Positions 43,372-58,594 of a stretch of 64,000 bases of DNA are shown in pieces. How positions within the stretch are numbered: position 1 is the stretch's first letter; each line of letters starts with the position of its first letter. Origin of the DNA: Microcystaceae cyanobacterium (lineage in GTDB: Bacteria > Cyanobacteriota > Cyanobacteriia > Cyanobacteriales > Microcystaceae); NCBI GenBank assembly GCA_041746575.1, contig JBGTGT010000101.1:43859-107858 (forward strand), in the 5' to 3' direction. The translations under genes were made by a program, and so were the position numbers. The notes under the pieces are model-generated. The model was given only the letters and a program-made list of their open reading frames with translations, was not told the DNA's origin and made no database searches.

Positions 43372-44427
43372 ATGTCTTTAAGTGAAGGTTATGGCATTCT
43401 TAAAGGGACAGCCCTTGAGGGAAAGGCTGAAAGAGAGGACAAAAAAAGTCCTCATTATCAAATTTTAGTTGAAGCGAATTTAGAAAAATTTCGAGTTCCC
43501 GTTAATGTTAAATCCGTCAAAGAACCCCCAGATTTATTGGTCAAAATCGTTCTCGACTTCGACCATCCGATAACCCAACAATTAACCCAACTGTCTCCTG
43601 GTTTTACGGAGATTTCCCTCGCCGAACGAAAAGCCGGTGGGGTTGCCTTAGATTATATCCGTATGAATCTAGCTAATCAAGCAGAAATGCGCGTCGTTAG
43701 GGCATATTTAGACGGAAGAGATAATGATTTAAACGATTTATTAGAAGGGATTATTTTGCCCATCTTGAACGATTCTCAAGTAGAGGTGTATGCCTTTGGT
43801 GAGCCGTGGGGGCCGGAGAGCAAAAGAGATAAAATTTTTAGTTTTCAACCCGGTCGCGGTGTTCATAATATTCACATGAATCAAGGCAACCGAGAAGCGC
43901 AATTTGCCAAAGAAAACAGCGTATATCAAGATGGAGGGTTATTAATCCATCTCAAAGATGAAAATCGTTGGATGGCTTTTTTCTCGGCCTTTCAGTCTCA
44001 ATCTTTCCATACAGATGATGCAACGGGAAATCCCTTGGATAATCAAGGTCAACCCGTCCAACCTCGTCCTGATGTTGAAGAACCGCTTCCCTCTGTTCCT
44101 TTGGATATCAAGATTATTGCCGCCCTAGTCAATCCCCTAGGCGATGATGTCGGACTAGAAACGGTTACAGTAATCAATACCACCGCGAATACGATAACGC
44201 TAGAAGGATGGTCACTGGCTGACCGAATTAAGCGAAAAATGCCCCTTTCTGGCTCAATAGAAGCCGGAGAAACCCATCGGATTAAGCTATCGGGGAATGA
44301 TATTCAACTGAGTAATCAAGGAGGAATGATTACGTTGCTCAATCCTCAAGGATTAAAAGTGGATGGGGTATCCTACACCAAGCAGGAGGTCAATACTCAA
44401 GGAAAGACGCTAATTTTTAAAATTTAA
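43372..44427 (+). CDS. DUF2278 (YukJ) protein with C-terminal lamin-tail-like domain
   Basis: YGILKG, PHYQI, LDYIR, GVHNIHMNQGN, YQDGGL, AFQSQSFHTD; then IIAALVNP.G.D...ETV...LSNQGG.ITL. Confidence 0.85.
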   Translation: MSLSEGYGILKGTALEGKAEREDKKSPHYQILVEANLEKFRVPVNVKSVKEPPDLLVKIVLDFDHPITQQLTQLSPGFTEISLAERKAGGVALDYIRMNLANQAEMRVVRAYLDGRDNDLNDLLEGIILPILNDSQVEVYAFGEPWGPESKRDKIFSFQPGRGVHNIHMNQGNREAQFAKENSVYQDGGLLIHLKDENRWMAFFSAFQSQSFHTDDATGNPLDNQGQPVQPRPDVEEPLPSVPLDIKIIAALVNPLGDDVGLETVTVINTTANTITLEGWSLADRIKRKMPLSGSIEAGETHRIKLSGNDIQLSNQGGMITLLNPQGLKVDGVSYTKQEVNTQGKTLIFKI

Positions 44428-48182: not shown

Positions 48183-48788
48183 TTAATTCGTCGTGTTTCG
48201 AGAACGTTCAACCCTAAAAAGTAGTTGTAAAGCGATAATAATTCCCACTAATCCGGCGGCAATGACATTGAGCGTCGCTTGGATGGCAATTAGACTCGAC
48301 GGGGTAACTAATGCGCCGGGTACAGCTAAGGTTGTCCCGATCTGATTAGGGGCAATTACTGTCGCCCCTTGGGGTAAAGTTAATAACTTGAAGGTCAATT
48401 CACCCACGCGGATGAGGGCAATTAACACAGAAATAGCCATTACCCCAATATTGGTAAACAGCCCTAACTTGAGGTCTCGAACCATTGTAGCGTAAGTGAG
48501 ACGAGAATTTTGACGCTTCAGCCGTCTGGCCAACTTTGTGTAACGAAAACACCAATAAATACTGAAAATGAGCATTATTAAACAGGTAAGGGCTAATCCT
48601 AACCCGACTGATAATCTACCCGCCGCTGGTTGCCCCCATTTTGCTAGGGCATAAATAATCACCACAAGGATGGGAATTAACCCTAAAAGGGTTTGCACAA
48701 AAAAACCAATCCATCCTAAGCGTAAAAAAGCAGGGGAGAGATGTTGAGACGTTGAGGCATTGACTTGAGACTTGGGAGAATTAGACAT
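48183..48788 (-). CDS. DUF3611 (Tic21-like) membrane protein
   Basis: RLGWIGFFVQ.LLG, FSIYWCFRY. Confidence 0.8.
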   Translation of the reverse strand: MSNSPKSQVNASTSQHLSPAFLRLGWIGFFVQTLLGLIPILVVIIYALAKWGQPAAGRLSVGLGLALTCLIMLIFSIYWCFRYTKLARRLKRQNSRLTYATMVRDLKLGLFTNIGVMAISVLIALIRVGELTFKLLTLPQGATVIAPNQIGTTLAVPGALVTPSSLIAIQATLNVIAAGLVGIIIALQLLFRVERSRNTTN

Positions 48789-48872: not shown

Positions 48873-49367
48873 ATGAGATTATCAGAAAAATTTTTGATTC
48901 ATGAACTTATTTCAATCAATAAAGTAAAAATGACGATTTTATGGACATTATTCTTCTTCACAGCTCAAGCTAATCTTTCAGATCCGGATTTTCAGCGATT
49001 AGCCGAACACTTGGCACAATTAAACATCCCTTTGAAATGGGAGAAACCCCCCGGAACGGGGAATTATGGTGCCTTTGAACCCAAAAGTCAAACGATTTGG
49101 TTAGATCCTATTATTATTGACTTAGGAATTGCAAAACCAACCTTAATTCATGAATCAGTTCACGTTGCTCAAGAATGCAAAGGAAAGGGTAAACTGATAC
49201 CCTTAAACTTGGATCTAGAAACGCCTGCCCTCACCCGACGCTATTTTATGCGTTATAGTGGCGATCGCCGTGATTTAGAGCGGGAAGCCTATACCGTTCA
49301 AGCCCAATCGAATAGTACGGAGATTGCGATCGCTTTATTAGAAAAGTATTGTCAAAATATTCGTTAA
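48873..49367 (+). CDS. small zincin-like (HExxH) protein; start possibly 48930
   Basis: TLIHESVHVAQEC...EREAY. Confidence 0.75.
   Translation: MRLSEKFLIHELISINKVKMTILWTLFFFTAQANLSDPDFQRLAEHLAQLNIPLKWEKPPGTGNYGAFEPKSQTIWLDPIIIDLGIAKPTLIHESVHVAQECKGKGKLIPLNLDLETPALTRRYFMRYSGDRRDLEREAYTVQAQSNSTEIAIALLEKYCQNIR
49294..49357 (+). repeat. left 64-bp direct repeat (3' end of the zincin gene, contains HIP1)
   Basis: 56/64 ungapped identity with 54874-54937; identical 26-mer GGAGATTGCGATCGCTTTATTAGAAA. Confidence 0.93.
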
Positions 49368-49386: not shown

Positions 49387-50094
49387 CTAAGGACTGTTGG
49401 AATTCCCTGTTTTCCTCTCTAGTTCCCGAATTTTCATTTCTAATACCCTATTTTCGGTTCTCAATTTATTGGCTTGTTCCCGATAATAATTAGCTTGTTG
49501 GAGCGTTAACTTTCTTTGAGCATCTTCGTTCGCCAAATGGGATTGATGAGCCGCTTCACATCTGGCTCTTAAGCCTCCATCTACCGGAATCGATACAGAG
49601 AATAAAGCACCAAATTCTTGAGCATAGCCCGATGCACCTCTAGTATAGCTAGCCGAGTGAATAGTGGTTCCGGGGCAAGAGATGCCTCCCCCCAAACCAA
49701 ATTGAGATAGGGGAGGTGCGTAAATAACAGGGGCATTTGTCCCTAACGCTCTAGGAGAACTGCTGCCTTGACTGGAAGAATTTGAGCGATTGTTCGGCTC
49801 ATCCAAGTTAAATACTCGGTTATCTTGGATAACTCTGCCATCATAATTTTGATCAGAAGCGTTGATGTCTCGATTATCGATAACTGTATCGTTGTCGTAA
49901 ATTATGCGGTCTCCGTCAATCGTAAAATTATTAATGCCGATATCGTTTTCATTGTTGCTTAAGTTCAAATTGTCATTGGTTGTTGTGTTCCGAACCCCAA
50001 TATCAGAATCAACACTGCTAGAAACCTGTGCTTTGGCGGGTATGGGTAGCGAAAGTAACAGAACGATTACTAAAAAACGATAATAGTGGCTCAT
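49387..50094 (-). CDS. secreted Asn/Asp-rich protein with Cys-pair beta-hairpin and C-terminal coiled coil
   Basis: Signal PAKA|Q; N/D-rich stretch; GGGISCPGT...FGALFSVSIPVDGGLRARCEAA; heptad tail. Confidence 0.8.
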   Translation of the reverse strand: MSHYYRFLVIVLLLSLPIPAKAQVSSSVDSDIGVRNTTTNDNLNLSNNENDIGINNFTIDGDRIIYDNDTVIDNRDINASDQNYDGRVIQDNRVFNLDEPNNRSNSSSQGSSSPRALGTNAPVIYAPPLSQFGLGGGISCPGTTIHSASYTRGASGYAQEFGALFSVSIPVDGGLRARCEAAHQSHLANEDAQRKLTLQQANYYREQANKLRTENRVLEMKIRELERKTGNSNSP

Positions 50095-50391
50095 GACTCA
50101 TGGTATTGGAATTTGCCAAAAGTAAAAAATAAAGGGAAAGGACTTTAAAAAGTCAGTTCCTTCCCCTTCCTCAGGATTTGATCAGGGACTTACTTAAGCA
50201 AGGTGTTAACTGTTTTGCTAACTTCAATCGGTTAAGTTCCTAACCTGATCCTGTCAGTTGTCGTTTAATCCCGTTTTTCAAAAATATCGAGAGCATTATC
50301 CTAATCCCCAGCCTCTCTCCCATAAGGCGAGGGAGTCAGATGTGTCTCAGGTATTCAGAAAATTGAGATAGGACGGAAAGAAACAACTTAA

Positions 50392-51954
50392 TTAGTTACT
50401 TTGATCGCCACCACCAACATCTAAATTGCCATCGCCAGATTCTGCACCAAAGTCGATTTGAATTAGGTTCGTGTTGTCGCTGGTGTTGGTATTTTCATTG
50501 GTGATGTTATTAACGTTATCAATAACTGAGTCAATGGTGCTGGTGATGTTTGAAGTCACTTCACCCATGATGTCATTTTCAAGGGTATTAGCTAACTCAG
50601 ACGGTGAACCGATGCCTTCACCAAAGTCAATATTGCCCGTCGTTGCCGCCACATCAGATTCAATGTCGCTCATTAACTCATTTGCGCCTTCAATGGCTGA
50701 ATCTACCGCCGCCTGAGCATCGTTAGCACTATCTAAGGCAGAATCCACTGTACTATCCAATGCGCTTTCAATGGCACTATCTAAATCAGACATTCCCCCT
50801 TCTAAGGCGGCATCTAAAGCATTATCGATTGCAGAATCGACGGCTCCGTCCACCTCACTGGTGACATCAGATCCTTCAAGGCCACCAATGTCAACAGCAC
50901 CACCTTGAGCGTCTGCCGTTGAAGGACCACTTTGAGCGTCTGCTGTTGAGGGACCACTTTGAGCATCTGCTGTTCCACCTGCACCCCCTTCACTGGTGGT
51001 CGTAGAATCCAAAGGGCCGGTTTGAGCGTCTGCTGTTGAAGGACCACTTTGAGCGTCTGCTGTCCCACCTGCACTGGTTGAATCAGAGTTTGAGGCATTT
51101 TCCCCGTCAATCGAGCCTTCAATGTCAGACTCTAACTCAGACAGCGCATCAGAGATCGAATCACCAGAGGCAGAATCACCAGAGGTCGCATTGCCGCCTT
51201 CACCTGTTCCCGTTCCTGCAGAGGTAGAAGATCCCCCATTAGCGGCCGAATCGGACTCAGAAGGACCATTCGTAGCTGATGAGTCGCCGCCATCCGAAGT
51301 AGAAGATCCCCCATTAGCAGCCGAATCACCAGAGGTGGCATTTGAGGGACCGGAGGACGCATCACCAGAGGTGGCAACGCCGCCTTCACCTGTTCCGGTA
51401 GAAGACCCACCATTGGCCGTTGAATCGGACTCAGAAGGACCACTGGTAGCCGTTGAATCACCACTGTCAGAAGTGGCATCACCACTATCAGAGGTGGCAA
51501 CGCCGCCTTCACCTGTTCCGGTAGAAGACCCACCATTGGCTGTTGAATCAGACTCAGAAGGCCCATTAGTGGCCGTTGAATCACCACTATCAGAGGTGGC
51601 AGTACCGCCTTCACCTGTTCCGGTAGAAGACCCACCGTTGGCTGTTGAATCGGAAGTGGAATCTCCTGCTGTGTTGGTAGCGGCAGAATCTCCATCCGAA
51701 GTGGAATCTCCTGCTGTATTGGTAGCGGCAGAATCTCCATCCGAAGTGGAATCAGCCGTATTGTCAGCCGTTGCATCTGAAGTTGCGTCAGCGTTTGAAT
51801 CAGAAGTAACTTCTACATCCTCTACAGCTGAAGTTGCGGGGTCTTGAGGGAAAACTTGAGCGAGGCTACGTAATAAGAAGGCATCAAAACCAATTCCTCC
51901 CACGGCGGCGAGGACAGCAGTCAAGGCTAACGATTTAATTTTTTTCATTTTCAT
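50392..51954 (-). CDS. secreted hyper-acidic S/G/D/T/A repeat protein
   Basis: Basic N-terminus plus hydrophobic core and SLA|Q cleavage site; internal 9-, 15- and ~34-aa repeats with synonymous variation. Confidence 0.85.
   Translation of the reverse strand: MKMKKIKSLALTAVLAAVGGIGFDAFLLRSLAQVFPQDPATSAVEDVEVTSDSNADATSDATADNTADSTSDGDSAATNTAGDSTSDGDSAATNTAGDSTSDSTANGGSSTGTGEGGTATSDSGDSTATNGPSESDSTANGGSSTGTGEGGVATSDSGDATSDSGDSTATSGPSESDSTANGGSSTGTGEGGVATSGDASSGPSNATSGDSAANGGSSTSDGGDSSATNGPSESDSAANGGSSTSAGTGTGEGGNATSGDSASGDSISDALSELESDIEGSIDGENASNSDSTSAGGTADAQSGPSTADAQTGPLDSTTTSEGGAGGTADAQSGPSTADAQSGPSTADAQGGAVDIGGLEGSDVTSEVDGAVDSAIDNALDAALEGGMSDLDSAIESALDSTVDSALDSANDAQAAVDSAIEGANELMSDIESDVAATTGNIDFGEGIGSPSELANTLENDIMGEVTSNITSTIDSVIDNVNNITNENTNTSDNTNLIQIDFGAESGDGNLDVGGGDQSN
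50900..51760 (-). repeat. coding tandem repeats: 27-nt (STADAQSGP), ~102-nt (DSTANGGSSTGTGEGG...), 45-nt (GDSTSDGDSAATNTA)
   Basis: TADAQ x5, DS[TA]ANGGSST x5, DSTSDGDSAATNTAG x2. Confidence 0.9.
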
Positions 51955-52753: not shown

Positions 52754-53719
52754 ATGAAAGACGCTGCATCATTTCGGTCTTATCTAGACTCCCTCAATCT
52801 TCAACAACAAAAACAGATTCAACAGATTACCCTAAAAATTAAAAATCGATTGCGTCGTTGCGCTCAAGATATTGTGGAAATTGGCAATGATTTATGCCAA
52901 ATAAAAAAACATTTAAAGCATGGTGAGTTTCGTCAGTGGTTGAAAGTGGAATTTGATTGGAGTGTGTCGACTGCTAATAAATTTATGCAAGTCAGTCAAC
53001 GATTTACGACAAAAGACTTAGTTGATGTCGAAATTGCTCCCTCCGCTCTTTATCTTTTATCAGCCTCTTCGCTTCCAGATACGGTTCGTCAAAATGCGCT
53101 TGAACAAGCGAAACAAGGTAAGCCTATTAGTTTTTCCTTTGCTCAACAATTGATCAATACTCATAAAACCCAAACCTCCGAGGTTTCTATCGAAGAGGAA
53201 GTCAGCCGTCAAGCACATCAGGAACACAACGATGTTGTCTCGTCCGCCTTGCCCGATCAGTGTTCATCTAACATTAATGTCTATCCTTTTGCTAATTTTA
53301 GTATTTGTCTGCAACGGGAATGGCAGCGCATGGCGCGCGAACAAAAAGATTTATCGGTGATCATTGCTCAAATTGATGATACCTCTTTGTTACTTTCTGC
53401 TGAAATACTTGAAATAATGACCAACAAAATGGCGAGTTTGTTGCATCGTCCTGCTGATTTTATTGTTTACGATAGGAATAACCGATGGTTCATTATTCTA
53501 CCAAATACCTCGGCGGAAGGAGCGCATTGGGTGAGGCGTCGTTTTTTAGAATGGTTCTCTGTTTGGCAAAACCAAAATAATTCCTTTCATAATTTAGAAA
53601 TGCCCAAACTTAGTTTAGGGAATGCAACCGTCGTTCCCCAACCGAATTCTGATGCTAAGTCTTTAATTGAACAAGCGCAACGGGCTTTAAAGCAAGAACA
53701 CTACACTAAAATAGACTAG
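52754..53719 (+). CDS. DUF3102 domain fused to a degenerate GGDEF domain
   Basis: IVEIG..L...K..L.HGEF.QWL..EF.WS..TA.KFM; then QREWQRMAREQ..LS...HRPADFIVYDRNNRWFIILPNT..EGA. Confidence 0.85.
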   Translation: MKDAASFRSYLDSLNLQQQKQIQQITLKIKNRLRRCAQDIVEIGNDLCQIKKHLKHGEFRQWLKVEFDWSVSTANKFMQVSQRFTTKDLVDVEIAPSALYLLSASSLPDTVRQNALEQAKQGKPISFSFAQQLINTHKTQTSEVSIEEEVSRQAHQEHNDVVSSALPDQCSSNINVYPFANFSICLQREWQRMAREQKDLSVIIAQIDDTSLLLSAEILEIMTNKMASLLHRPADFIVYDRNNRWFIILPNTSAEGAHWVRRRFLEWFSVWQNQNNSFHNLEMPKLSLGNATVVPQPNSDAKSLIEQAQRALKQEHYTKID

Positions 53720-55897: not shown

Positions 55898-58594
55898 ATG
55901 TCTTTTGTAGGTTTACATATTCATAGTGATTATAGTCTTTTAGATGGCGCATCCCAATTACCTTCCCTGGTTGAGCGGGCGGTTGAGTTAGGAATGCCAG
56001 CGATCGCTTTAACAGATCACGGGGTAATGTATGGCGCAATTGAACTGATTAAAGTCTGCCGGGATAAAGGCATTAAACCGATTATTGGCAATGAGATGTA
56101 TGTCATTAATGGTGATATTGAAGAGAAAAAAAAATATCGTCGCTATCATCAAGTTGTTTTAGCAAAAAATACGCAAGGGTATAAAAATCTCGTTAAGTTA
56201 ACCACCGTTTCTCACCTAAAAGGAATACAGGGAAAAGGAATTTTTGCTCGTCCTTGCATTAATAAAGACCTCTTAAAATACTACCACGAAGGTTTAATTG
56301 TGACCAGTGCTTGTTTAGGAGGAGAAATTCCCCAAGCCATTTTAGCCAATGATCTCAACCGAGCCGAAGAAGTCGCTAAATGGTATCAAGCTATTTTTGG
56401 AGATGACTATTACTTAGAAATTCAAGATCACGGTTCCCCTGAAGATAGAATGGTCAATGTTGCGATCGTTAATATCGCTAAAGCATTGGGCATTAAAATC
56501 ATAGCGACCAATGATTCTCATTTTATATCTTGTTATGATGTAGAAGCTCATGATGCCCTTTTATGTATTCAAACAGGGAAATTAATTACCGAAGATAAAC
56601 GTCTCAGATATAGCGGCACTGAATATCTTAAATCGGCAGAAGAAATGCGTTTGCTCTTTCGAGATCACTTACCCAATGACATCATCGAAGAAGCGATTAA
56701 CAATACCCTAGAAGTGTCCGAAAAAGTCGAAATTTATAAGATATTAGGAGAGCCTCGTATTCCGAATTACCCCGTTCCTCCCGGTCACACTTCTGATAGT
56801 TATGTTGAAGAAATCGCTTGGAAGGGGTTAATGGAACGCCTAAAATGTAAATCCCACAGCGAACTTGAACCGCACTATAAAGAACGATTAGAATACGAAC
56901 TTAAAATGTTACAAAAGATGGGTTTCTCAACCTATTTTCTGGTTGTGTGGGATTATATTAAATATGCCAGAGATCATCATATTCCAGTTGGCCCCGGACG
57001 AGGTTCGGCGGCGGGATCTTTAGTAGCTTATGCCATGAAAATTACCAATATTGATCCGGTACATCACGGCTTATTGTTTGAGCGATTTCTCAATCCTGAA
57101 CGAAAATCGATGCCCGATATTGATACCGATTTTTGTATTGAAAGACGAGATGAAATGATTCGATATGTCACCGAAAAATACGGGGAAACCAATGTTGCCC
57201 AAATTATTACTTTTAACCGCCTGACTTCTAAAGCGGTGCTTAAAGATGTAGCCAGAGTGTTAAATATTCCCTATTCGGATTCCGATAGAATGGCGAAATT
57301 AATTCCTGTTTTGCGGGGGAAACCGACTAAATTAAAAGTCATGATTTCTGACAAAACCCCAGAACCTGAATTTAAAAAAGCGTATGATCATCAAGACGTT
57401 GACATTAAAGATGACAAGGGCAATGTGAGTGGACAAATTCCTGTTCGTAGTTGGATAGATATGGCCATTCGTATTGAAGGGACGAATAAAACCTTTGGCG
57501 TTCATGCGGCAGGTGTGGTCATTTCTTCCGAACCGTTAGATGAAATTGTTCCTTTACAAAAGAATAATGATGGTGCAGTAATTACCCAATATTTTATGGA
57601 AGATTTAGAGTCGTTAGGTTTATTGAAAATGGACTTTTTAGGCTTAAAAAACTTAACGACTTTAGAAAGAGCCGTAGAACTGATTCAGCAAAATCAAGGG
57701 ATTCAACTGGATTTAGACCAGCTTCCTTTAGACGAACGAAAAGCCTTACAAATTATTGAAAAAGGAAACCTTAAAAAATTACCTCCCGATATTGAGAAAA
57801 CCCATAAATTACTAGAAGCAGGAGATTTAGAAGGGATTTTCCAACTTGAATCATCGGGAATGAAACAAATTGTCAAAGACTTAAAACCTTCAGGGATCGA
57901 AGATATTTCTTCTATTTTAGCCCTCTATCGTCCGGGGCCTTTAGATGCGGGACTAATTCCTAAATTTATTGATCGTAAACATGGTCGAGAACCGATTCAA
58001 TATGAACATAAGTTACTCGAACCCATTCTTAAAGAAACCTATGCTGTGCTCGTTTATCAAGAACAAATTATGAAAATGGCGCAAGATTTGGCAGGATATT
58101 CTTTAGGAGAAGCGGATTTATTGCGTCGTGCGATGGGTAAGAAAAAAGCCTCAGAAATGGCAAAACATCGTGAAATTTTTATTGATGGTTCGACCCGAAA
58201 TGGGGTACCGCCGAGAATTGCAGAAAATTTATTTGAGCAGATGGTCAAATTTGCTGAATATTGTCTCAGTTATGAAACTGAAATTTTAACAATAGAATAT
58301 GGCTTTTTAGCGATCGGTCAAATTGTAGAAGCGGAGATTGAATGTCAGGTTTATACCATAGATAAGAATGGGTTTATTTATACCCAACCCATTGTGCAAT
58401 GGCACGATAGAGGAGAAAGGGAAATTTATCAATATACCCTAGAAGGGGGTTCAGTGATTCAGTCCACGAAAGATCATCAGTTTATGACGATAACAGGGGA
58501 AATGTTCCCCATTGATCAGATTTTTCAACAAGGATTGGAACTTAAGCAAATTCCGGTCAGTATGCCAGAAAAGATTGAACCTTGTTGGGTTTAA
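55898..58594 (+). CDS. dnaE: DNA polymerase III alpha N-terminal half with split-intein N fragment
   Basis: PHP domain [23 protein letters not shown]; ends [12 protein letters not shown]... Confidence 0.97.
58262..58591 (+). other. DnaE split intein, N fragment (110 aa)
   Basis: Cys1 [18 protein letters not shown]; block B TKDH. Confidence 0.95.

Follow-up and report, generated by a model that had tools for sequence, protein, structure and literature searches.

An exported hairpin-helix protein of a Microcystaceae cyanobacterium, a divergent member of an unnamed family of cyanobacteria and marine phages that recurs beside secreted low-complexity proteins

The DNA stretch analysed here (64,000 nucleotides (nt), positions 43,859 to 107,858 of the forward strand of contig JBGTGT010000101.1, assembly GCA_041746575.1, from a Microcystaceae cyanobacterium; referred to below as the window) contains on its minus strand a complete open reading frame (ORF) at 49387..50094, with the stop codon at 49387-49389. 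It encodes an exported hairpin-helix protein of 235 amino acids (aa) with two close homologues, P0002 and P0003. Upstream of it and in the same orientation lies the gene of its presumed partner (50392..51954, minus strand), a secreted S/T/D/G/A-rich protein of 520 aa. The 235-aa product is a real exported protein, and the family membership of its hairpin core is established: by profile comparison it is a divergent member of an unnamed family common to cyanobacteria and marine phages. No Pfam or NCBIfam model, solved relative or published function was found for this family. Its members are found beside genes of secreted proteins in cyanobacteria, in cyanophages and in a Vibrio phage lineage, and this two-gene arrangement is recurrent.

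The N-terminus of the 235-aa protein (residues 1-22, 50029..50094, minus strand as for all segments of the gene) has the features of a Sec-type signal peptide: MSHYYRFLVIVLLLSLPIPAKA is followed by QVSS, cleavage is likely after AKA, a lipobox Cys is absent and residues 3-14 are modelled as a helix. Signal peptide calls, both for this protein and for the phage relatives, are readings of the translated sequences made with no predictor. The signal peptide is followed by an acidic head (residues 23-105, 49780..50028) consisting of 22 % N, 17 % D and 11 % I, with an isoelectric point (pI) of 4.1. The head is modelled as disordered and its sequence is kept in both close homologues, which are 67 % and 57–58 % identical. 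The next segment is an S/G/P-rich linker (residues 106-139, 49678..49779), ending in APVIYAPPLSQFGLGGGIS, at which the alignments place the start of the family core. The hairpin itself (residues 140-179, 49558..49677) is formed by Cys140, strand 144-152, a turn, strand 160-168, the IPVDGG motif and Cys179, and the two cysteines probably make a disulfide clamp at its base. The C-terminal part is a single long helix (residues 173-230, 49405..49578), which is zipper-like in its last ~20 residues only and basic (K+R 12 versus D+E 8; pI 9.7 for residues 173-235). In the AlphaFold2 model, calculated from a 33-sequence alignment, the two strands and the 58-residue helix 173-230 are well separated from the rest by the predicted local distance difference test (pLDDT), which is 75-94 over residues 141-230, below 50 for residues 22-138 and 61 on average. 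The original prediction, made from the letters alone, had read in this ORF a signal peptide, about 80 residues of N/D/I-rich sequence and a cysteine followed by strand, turn, strand and helix; the translation, the composition together with the conservation, and the model, respectively, agree with it.

The 235-aa protein has no match in Pfam or NCBIfam. A word-indexed search returned only the protein itself and P0002 and P0003, both encoded on one 3.5-kb metagenome contig, and phmmer against 1.84 billion representatives returned a single relative, the first of these two homologues. The profile of this window trio weakly matched 12 of the 401 same-order genomes sampled, a count that includes the genome of the window itself. 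Eight of the 11 foreign matches were read (L010-L012 were left out), and seven of these eight places are secreted ORFs of 165-215 aa with the pattern FGPGISC(P/S)TP ... YGA.S..IPLGG....C; the remaining one, L009, is a non-relative. The alignment of these relatives found 31 clusters, all unnamed, among 3,452 candidates. Aligned by hhalign, the profile of the window trio matches that of 30 typical members over residues 115-182 (68 columns) at 97.4 % with an E-value of 1.1e-11. Conversely, the profile of typical members, built without the window subfamily, has the target ORF as its sole match in its own genome (E 5.2e-8). The core motif of the family is FGPGISCPTP...YGA.S..IPLGG....C, in which Gly137, Cys140, Gly162 and Pro170 (numbering of the window protein) are invariant in 33 sequences and Cys179 is nearly so; the same is seen in a 10-sequence alignment, and Gly/Pro turns flank the hairpin. 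None of 7,996 candidates was a fused or longer form of the family, though this is weak evidence, and a scan of genome contigs with the family alignment, in which the window protein served as the confirming query, confirmed none.

The members that bear names are SYNPCC7002_A0935 (ACA98939.1), Glo7428_1664, WP_115023527.1 from Synechococcus sp. UW69 and BAZ06837.1 from Calothrix NIES-3974, all of them annotated as “hypothetical protein”; hypothetical proteins of Aliterella and Aerosakkonema belong to the family as well. The distribution of the family is sparse and patchy: in a sample of the phylum it is present in 10 of 401 genomes at E <= 1e-4, including four of the 29 genomes of one family with genomes of 2.4-2.7 Mb and one other genome (1/20) of the taxonomic family of the window. 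The latter copy (locus L017, contig G322:C204, 1441-2007, minus strand) contains an in-frame TGA, has no start codon ahead of the motif and is located at the end of a contig. Either a pseudogene or a fault of the assembly may explain this.

Typical members have four cysteines, and their helix is conserved as L..EI..QR.LDT......C..F...GV.ID...FP.F..C. The window trio keeps the first two cysteines only. Cys3, Cys4 and the QRxLDT helix are absent in the target, P0002 and P0003, and the target therefore represents a variant subfamily. The place of the helical part with Cys3 and Cys4 is taken by a long Q/R/E/A-rich basic helix, and the conserved N/D/I-rich segment of ~80 residues is inserted in front of the core. 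The original prediction described the C-terminal part as a long heptad helix. Its length is borne out by the model, but its heptad periodicity is no better than that of shuffled sequences: at a period of 3.5 residues, a fraction of 0.60 of the shuffles reaches the hydrophobic power of the 55-residue stretch and a fraction of 0.11 that of the final 28 residues, and P0002 and P0003 likewise do not rise above their shuffles. By eye, L211/N215/L218/I222/L225 make up three zipper-like heptads, and the label “coiled coil” appears justified for these positions only.

The hairpin of typical members carries nearly no charges on either face and has aromatic residues at both ends. Its outward face is formed by L/I/V, L/V/I and G/A/V in strand 1 and by Y, A, V/A/F, F/L, I/T and L in strand 2; its inward face is lined by S/E, A/G/S and G/N/S in strand 1 and by G, T/S, S/M and T/I in strand 2. 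Such a pattern suggests a hairpin that is buried on both sides, with lipid or a protein core on one side and tight packing of small residues on the other. Strand 2 of the window trio is still hydrophobic (F, A, F/V, V/I, I/V). The AlphaFold2 model of a typical member consists of a protruding hairpin and helices (mean pLDDT 54.6, ~50 in the hairpin), and in both models, that of the window protein and that of the typical member, the hairpin is left unpacked against the helices. In Foldseek the window model has no match in PDB at E <= 0.001 (best E 1.7); the weak rows at E 1.8-6.5 are outer-membrane efflux complexes (9j3d_A, 5azs_B) and stathmin. VIA-align against 48,161 chains matched the long helix only (Z <= 6.6), so that neither program gave a solved barrel protein as a match for the monomer folds, and a PDB sequence search with the family profile yielded only a designed repeat protein (E 2.1).

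The connection with phages is clearest for the typical members. With the marine-type member P0011 as the query, matches were found in 29 of 50,697 phage records, all annotated as hypothetical: the protein of S-CAM7 is 76 % identical, those of T7-like cyanopodoviruses (P-SSP2/3, P-RSP2, S-TIP37, S-RIP1/2, KBS-P-1A, S-SBP1) are 26-31 % identical, and Vibrio phage D274 is also among the matches. The motif is kept in the phage proteins, as IPLDGG....C in S-TIP37 and as SIPVD....C in D274. Typical members match phrog_1755, whose function is uncharacterised, at E-values from 1.6e-26 to 5.5e-7; the window protein matches it at E 0.0048 (17.3 bits) over residues 125-156 only. As a direct query the window protein hits six phage records at E <= 10 (best E 0.3), all from cyanophages, and its matches in S-RIP2 and KBS-P-1A fall at the same places as those of P0011. 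The phage link of the window protein is thus transitive, since it runs through the family profile. The nearest clusters in the ESM-Atlas are viral, and a BFVD fold search with the window model has an uncharacterised protein of S-CAM7 in its top row (E 0.038) and no match at E <= 0.001. The likeness to cyanophage proteins that the original prediction saw in the pattern GGGISC.G.T...SIP.DGG...C was correct, since cyanophage proteins are among the family members. D274-like copies are present in 28 Vibrio phage records. A scan of viral contigs placed the motif at 58 sites, none of which was confirmed with P0020. Outside cyanobacteria the module is found in a phage lineage of Vibrio crassostreae/tasmaniensis (L071 and 27 further records), where it follows a late gene of 1,051 aa.

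The 520-aa protein contains 90 D+E and no K+R after residue 35, and includes acidic amphipathic stretches (DSAIDNALDAALEGG...). Its gene is partly built of tandem DNA repeats of 27, 45 and 123 bp. No match to it was found in Pfam, NCBIfam, PHROG or PADLOC, and for its last 199 residues the sampled genomes of the same order gave one marginal match (E 7.9e-4) and no clear relative. As a crude filter for partners we used a signal peptide together with a content of at least 55 % S/T/N/G/Q/A/D, within 3 kb of the family gene. In the 64 kb of the window it is passed by two ORFs only, namely the target and the adjoining, co-oriented 520-aa gene. Elsewhere it is passed at 13 of the 17 non-window loci, which correspond to roughly ten lineages and not to 17 independent cases. 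Among the misses, L002, L005 and L007 each show, next to the family gene, a homologue of a partner that passes, and L025 has a co-oriented ORF that reads as secreted; the upstream side of L020 cannot be read, since the locus is at a contig edge. By eye, all cellular loci but two have one to four adjoining genes for S/T/N/G-rich proteins of 100-260 aa with signal peptides, the exceptions being L015, with only a distant candidate on the opposite strand, and L020, with only Cys-rich secreted ORFs downstream. Most of the cellular partners end in ..SVF.Q, ..FSQNF, ..AFSNF or ..HET.AG.R.

In the phages the partner is directly upstream of the family gene at all four loci read. The partner in S-TIP37 and P-RSP2 is a T/S-rich secreted ORF of 117-127 aa, which ends in SLSVFSQ and overlaps the family gene at its start. 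A secreted partner is likewise found directly upstream in S-CAM7 and D274. The S-CAM7 partner is phrog_28091, and one cellular partner matches phrog_564. These small secreted S/T-rich phage ORFs lie at 3507-3890 of L027, 3570-3923 of L028, 3632-3937 of L029 and 1896-2390 of L071. Since the phages carry the partner gene too, the unit common to hosts and phages is the pair and not a single gene. The description of the 235-aa protein as the secreted partner of its neighbour in the original prediction fits this family-wide adjacency.

Two further kinds of gene occur near the module at other loci. Some loci of small genomes resembling those of picocyanobacteria have an added Cys-rich secreted protein of 150-175 aa (..YCI.N.D.TG.C..) with no family match: L019 814-1317 (minus strand), L020 749-1270 (plus strand) and L021 2051-2500 (plus strand). 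A divergent gene lies ahead of the module at three cyanobacterial loci that are unrelated to each other (L013 1165-4896, L014 1466-2983 and L026 357-755, all on the minus strand), and the products of these genes share an N-terminal domain of ~100 aa, ..GYS.EYIK..G..LW.KL...LG.KV.K.NFR... This domain is fused to a WD40-repeat region at one locus and to an AAA_35 ATPase at another, and stands alone at the third. The divergent gene might regulate the module, for which a weak winged-helix match is the sole hint.

Within the window, the two genes of the pair have been compared directly. BLASTP finds no similarity between the 235-aa and the 520-aa protein (best E 1.5). The N/D/I/T-rich tail of the latter (residues 470-519, 50398..50547, minus strand) nevertheless aligns with the mature N-terminus of the former: when residues 24-62 of the 235-aa protein are aligned locally and without gaps to residues 470-508 of the neighbour, the score is 70. 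Shuffling the tail alone gives 45.4 +/- 7.4, with 4 of 500 shuffles reaching the score of the real pair. The resemblance claimed in the original prediction is therefore seen in the local alignment and not in BLASTP. The genes are separated by 297 nt, in which a GC-rich stem-loop is followed by UUUAUUUUUU. This stem-loop (GGGGAAGGAAC...GUCCUUUCCC; 50121..50170, minus strand, 25-75 nt upstream of the start codon) with its U-run resembles a terminator or an attenuator and could end the partner transcript or damp read-through. Its support is weak, since the fold of 106 nt has a z of −1.4, and a consensus scan did not list it. The stretch occurs in DNA sequencing runs of hot-spring metagenomes, with no RNA run among those listed for it.

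Taking these observations together, we tentatively favour, at well short of even confidence, a role of the 235-aa protein as an envelope assembly or anchoring subunit, which would be located in or at the outer membrane and would hold, export or seed its partner. It would be a Sec-exported envelope protein, unstable as a monomer, that assembles with its own copies and/or with the partner. The uncharged amphipathic hairpin, buried on both faces, would most likely be placed in or at the outer membrane, with the clamp at its base and the helix on the periplasmic side, similarly to the strand-to-helix transition of TolC. The N/D/I-rich head, which resembles the tail of the partner, would hold, export or seed the acidic 520-aa protein at the cell surface, and the intergenic hairpin with its U-run would keep the accessory subunit below the level of the partner. 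Oligomerisation and membrane insertion belong to this proposal with low confidence, and the pore named in the original prediction is hypothetical.

A number of results weigh against it. Strand 1 of the window trio is polar, with conserved H146, Y150 and R152 on one face and S147, S149 and T151 on the other, which makes the window hairpin less membrane-like than the typical one; the amphipathic hairpin of the original prediction is seen across the family, with its near-chargeless faces. As the heptads are not significantly periodic, a coiled coil would drive the assembly only weakly. The likeness of head and tail is a single modest observation without a general signal across loci: the comparison of the N-region with its own partner gives a mean z of 0.30 for 19 cognate pairs at 12 loci versus −0.02 for 209 non-cognate pairs, and three of the 19 cognate pairs exceed the 95th percentile of the non-cognate ones (the S-TIP37 row of this test is invalid, its N-region having been taken from a wrong start). 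A “nucleator” of the acidic protein, as originally proposed, has the one alignment in the window in its favour and no general excess of cognate over non-cognate pairs. There is no detectable homology between the 520-aa protein and the partners at other loci, and the gene context of P0002 and P0003 was not recovered in two metagenome scans. The two window genes may not be co-expressed, because of the 297-nt gap with its terminator-like hairpin. Finally, in Synechococcus PCC 7002 a marker placed between A0935 and A0936 costs little growth (PMC5458483), meaning that the locus is non-essential in the laboratory and no more.

Several of these points would also suit a soluble protein. A periplasmic or extracellular adaptor or chaperone, which would stay out of the membrane and capture the unfolded S/T-rich or acidic partner with its clamped hairpin and helix, either through strand addition or on the long polar helix, is nearly as likely as the outer-membrane assembly subunit, although still improbable if taken by itself. 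In its favour are the polar, basic character of the helix as against the extreme acidity of the partner, the lack of a significant heptad signal, the polar strand 1 of the window protein and the two disulfides of typical members, which would befit a small secreted domain. Geometrically, the closest matches are likewise hairpin-plus-helix binders such as stathmin-like domains, at the E-values of 1.8-6.5 given above. This explanation has to account for the chargeless faces of the hairpin in typical members, which are unusual for an exposed two-stranded hairpin, and for the fact that AlphaFold2 packs the hairpin against the helices in neither of the two models. Clearly less probable is an incidental adjacency, with an exported protein that is unrelated in function to the 520-aa gene. 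The gap with its terminator-like hairpin, the BLASTP result and the lack of a clear relative of the 520-aa tail elsewhere are compatible with it; against it stand the family-wide adjacency, the position of the only two filter-passing ORFs of 64 kb side by side in one orientation, and the head-tail alignment, which 4 of 500 shuffles equal.

It is also conceivable, with a likelihood that we regard as small, that cells have kept a phage-type envelope module, a hairpin protein that would act from the periplasmic side to pierce or reshape the outer membrane. In phages it would serve release or superinfection exclusion, and its cellular copies would be domesticated or mobile. The relatives in 29 of 50,697 phage records and in the further 28 Vibrio phage records, the patchy presence in 10 of 401 cellular genomes and the viral nature of the nearest ESM-Atlas clusters are in line with this. 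In S-TIP37 the pair is located between the tail-fibre and terminase genes, and in T7 the region between these genes holds the lysis genes. The stem hairpins of beta-pore-forming toxins, moreover, are similar to the alternating, Gly/Ser-rich hairpin of the family. Yet phage genes are absent around the window gene and around the other cellular loci that were read, having as many as four partner paralogues, as cellular loci do, suits a structure better than a lysis device, the cleavable signal peptides with neither lipobox nor signal anchor are unlike known spanins, and PADLOC matches neither the target nor the 520-aa protein nor the partners. The remaining explanation, a minimal TolC/OEP homologue reduced to one hairpin and one helix, is already disfavoured and very improbable. 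It originates from the SIP.DGG.RAR junction, which the original prediction likened to TolC/OEP repeats. The TolC of the same genome (524 aa, two OEP domains) does carry ..LFDGGQAFAQ.., and by eye its stretch ..SLQWRLFDGGQAFAQERAA.. resembles ..FSVSIPVDGGLRARCEAA.. of the target; in the hhalign register of the family with 26 cyanobacterial TolC homologues the Pro, the invariant Gly and the GG of the family fall on the second hairpin and the DGG junction of TolC. The probability of this hhalign alignment is 0.2 %, however, with E 0.3. PF02321 matches one of 33 family members (E 0.088, 13 bits, the threshold used for membership being 22 bits) and does not match the window protein at E <= 10; scanned over the genome it finds the real 524-aa TolC, and the target ORF is absent even at E 10. 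With one hairpin and one helix in 235 aa versus two tandem repeats of four elements in 430-530 aa, the likeness is an analogy at the level of motifs, a shared strand-to-helix design without demonstrable homology.

The preferred role as an outer-membrane assembly or anchoring subunit can be extended to a bolder picture, which we consider unlikely. The family might be a minimal outer-membrane device, in which the single hairpins of several protomers form a small beta-barrel with TolC-like transitions that exports or anchors the adjacent protein. Phages might carry the pair to breach or redecorate the outer membrane of the host, and in this hot-spring cyanobacterium the zipper tail and the subunit-mimicking head might tether a K/R-free acidic surface polymer.

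The family is present in marine picocyanobacteria and the T4-like and T7-like phages that infect them, and also in the genetic workhorse Synechococcus PCC 7002, where A0935 lies beside a much-used “neutral” integration site. An exported two-gene module of hosts and phages provides a handle on cyanobacterial surface biology and on the dealings of cyanophages with the outer membrane, and the window copy, in which tail and head are new and the partner is both new and extreme, illustrates how the module diversifies. A0935 and its neighbours (A0933-A0936) are mentioned in the papers on PCC 7002 solely as flanking neutral integration sites (PMC5458483, PMC5105302, PMC7042703). No paper on the function of the family was found in a search that did not extend to supplementary proteomic tables with possible localisation data. 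A literature search on cyanophage spanins listed no paper on the gene pair, and spanin-type genes of cyanophages were not found described in the literature located.

Other genes of the window are noted here for completeness. An ORF of 164 aa (48873-49367, plus strand) with a possible internal signal peptide, a HESVH (HExxH) motif and no family match converges on the target gene, leaving 19 nt between the stop codons. It is preceded by a gene for a DUF3611 membrane protein (48183-48788, minus strand, E 2e-41). At 52754-53719 (plus strand) a DUF3102 domain is joined to a weakly matching GGDEF domain (E 1e-6), and the DnaE-like ORF of 898 aa at 55898-58594 (plus strand) has an end that resembles the N-half of the split DnaE intein of cyanobacteria.

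Comparison with known systems places the window protein closest to the phrog_1755-like family. Common to both are the signal peptide, the low-complexity N-region, [FL]G.G[IV][ST]C before strand 1, the invariant Gly of strand 2, P[LV][GD]G and then Cys before the helix, and the adjacent gene of a secreted S/T-rich protein; the differences are the absence of Cys3 and Cys4 in the window trio and the pairing of the window copy with an acidic protein of 520 aa instead of a partner of 100-260 aa. TolC/OEP (PF02321) has the same succession of Pro, amphipathic strand, loop, strand of the type xGxx-hydrophobic-x-aromatic, (D/G)GG and long helix, whereas the target has a predicted disulfide clamp and no equatorial domain. 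In two-component spanins an overlapping exported pair is likewise encoded in the late region of podoviruses; in the present case both proteins have cleavable signals of the A-x-A type with neither an inner-membrane anchor nor a lipobox, and the cellular copies lie outside prophages. Curli-type sets, in which CsgA is accompanied by CsgB, CsgF and CsgG, differ from the module in their Pfam families, none of which is matched here, in the lipoprotein signal, which is missing here, and in the subunit-like similarity, which is not general across our loci. They resemble it, as far as its genes tell, in being a small gene set of a secreted low-complexity subunit and an exported accessory protein with a subunit-like N-terminal part.

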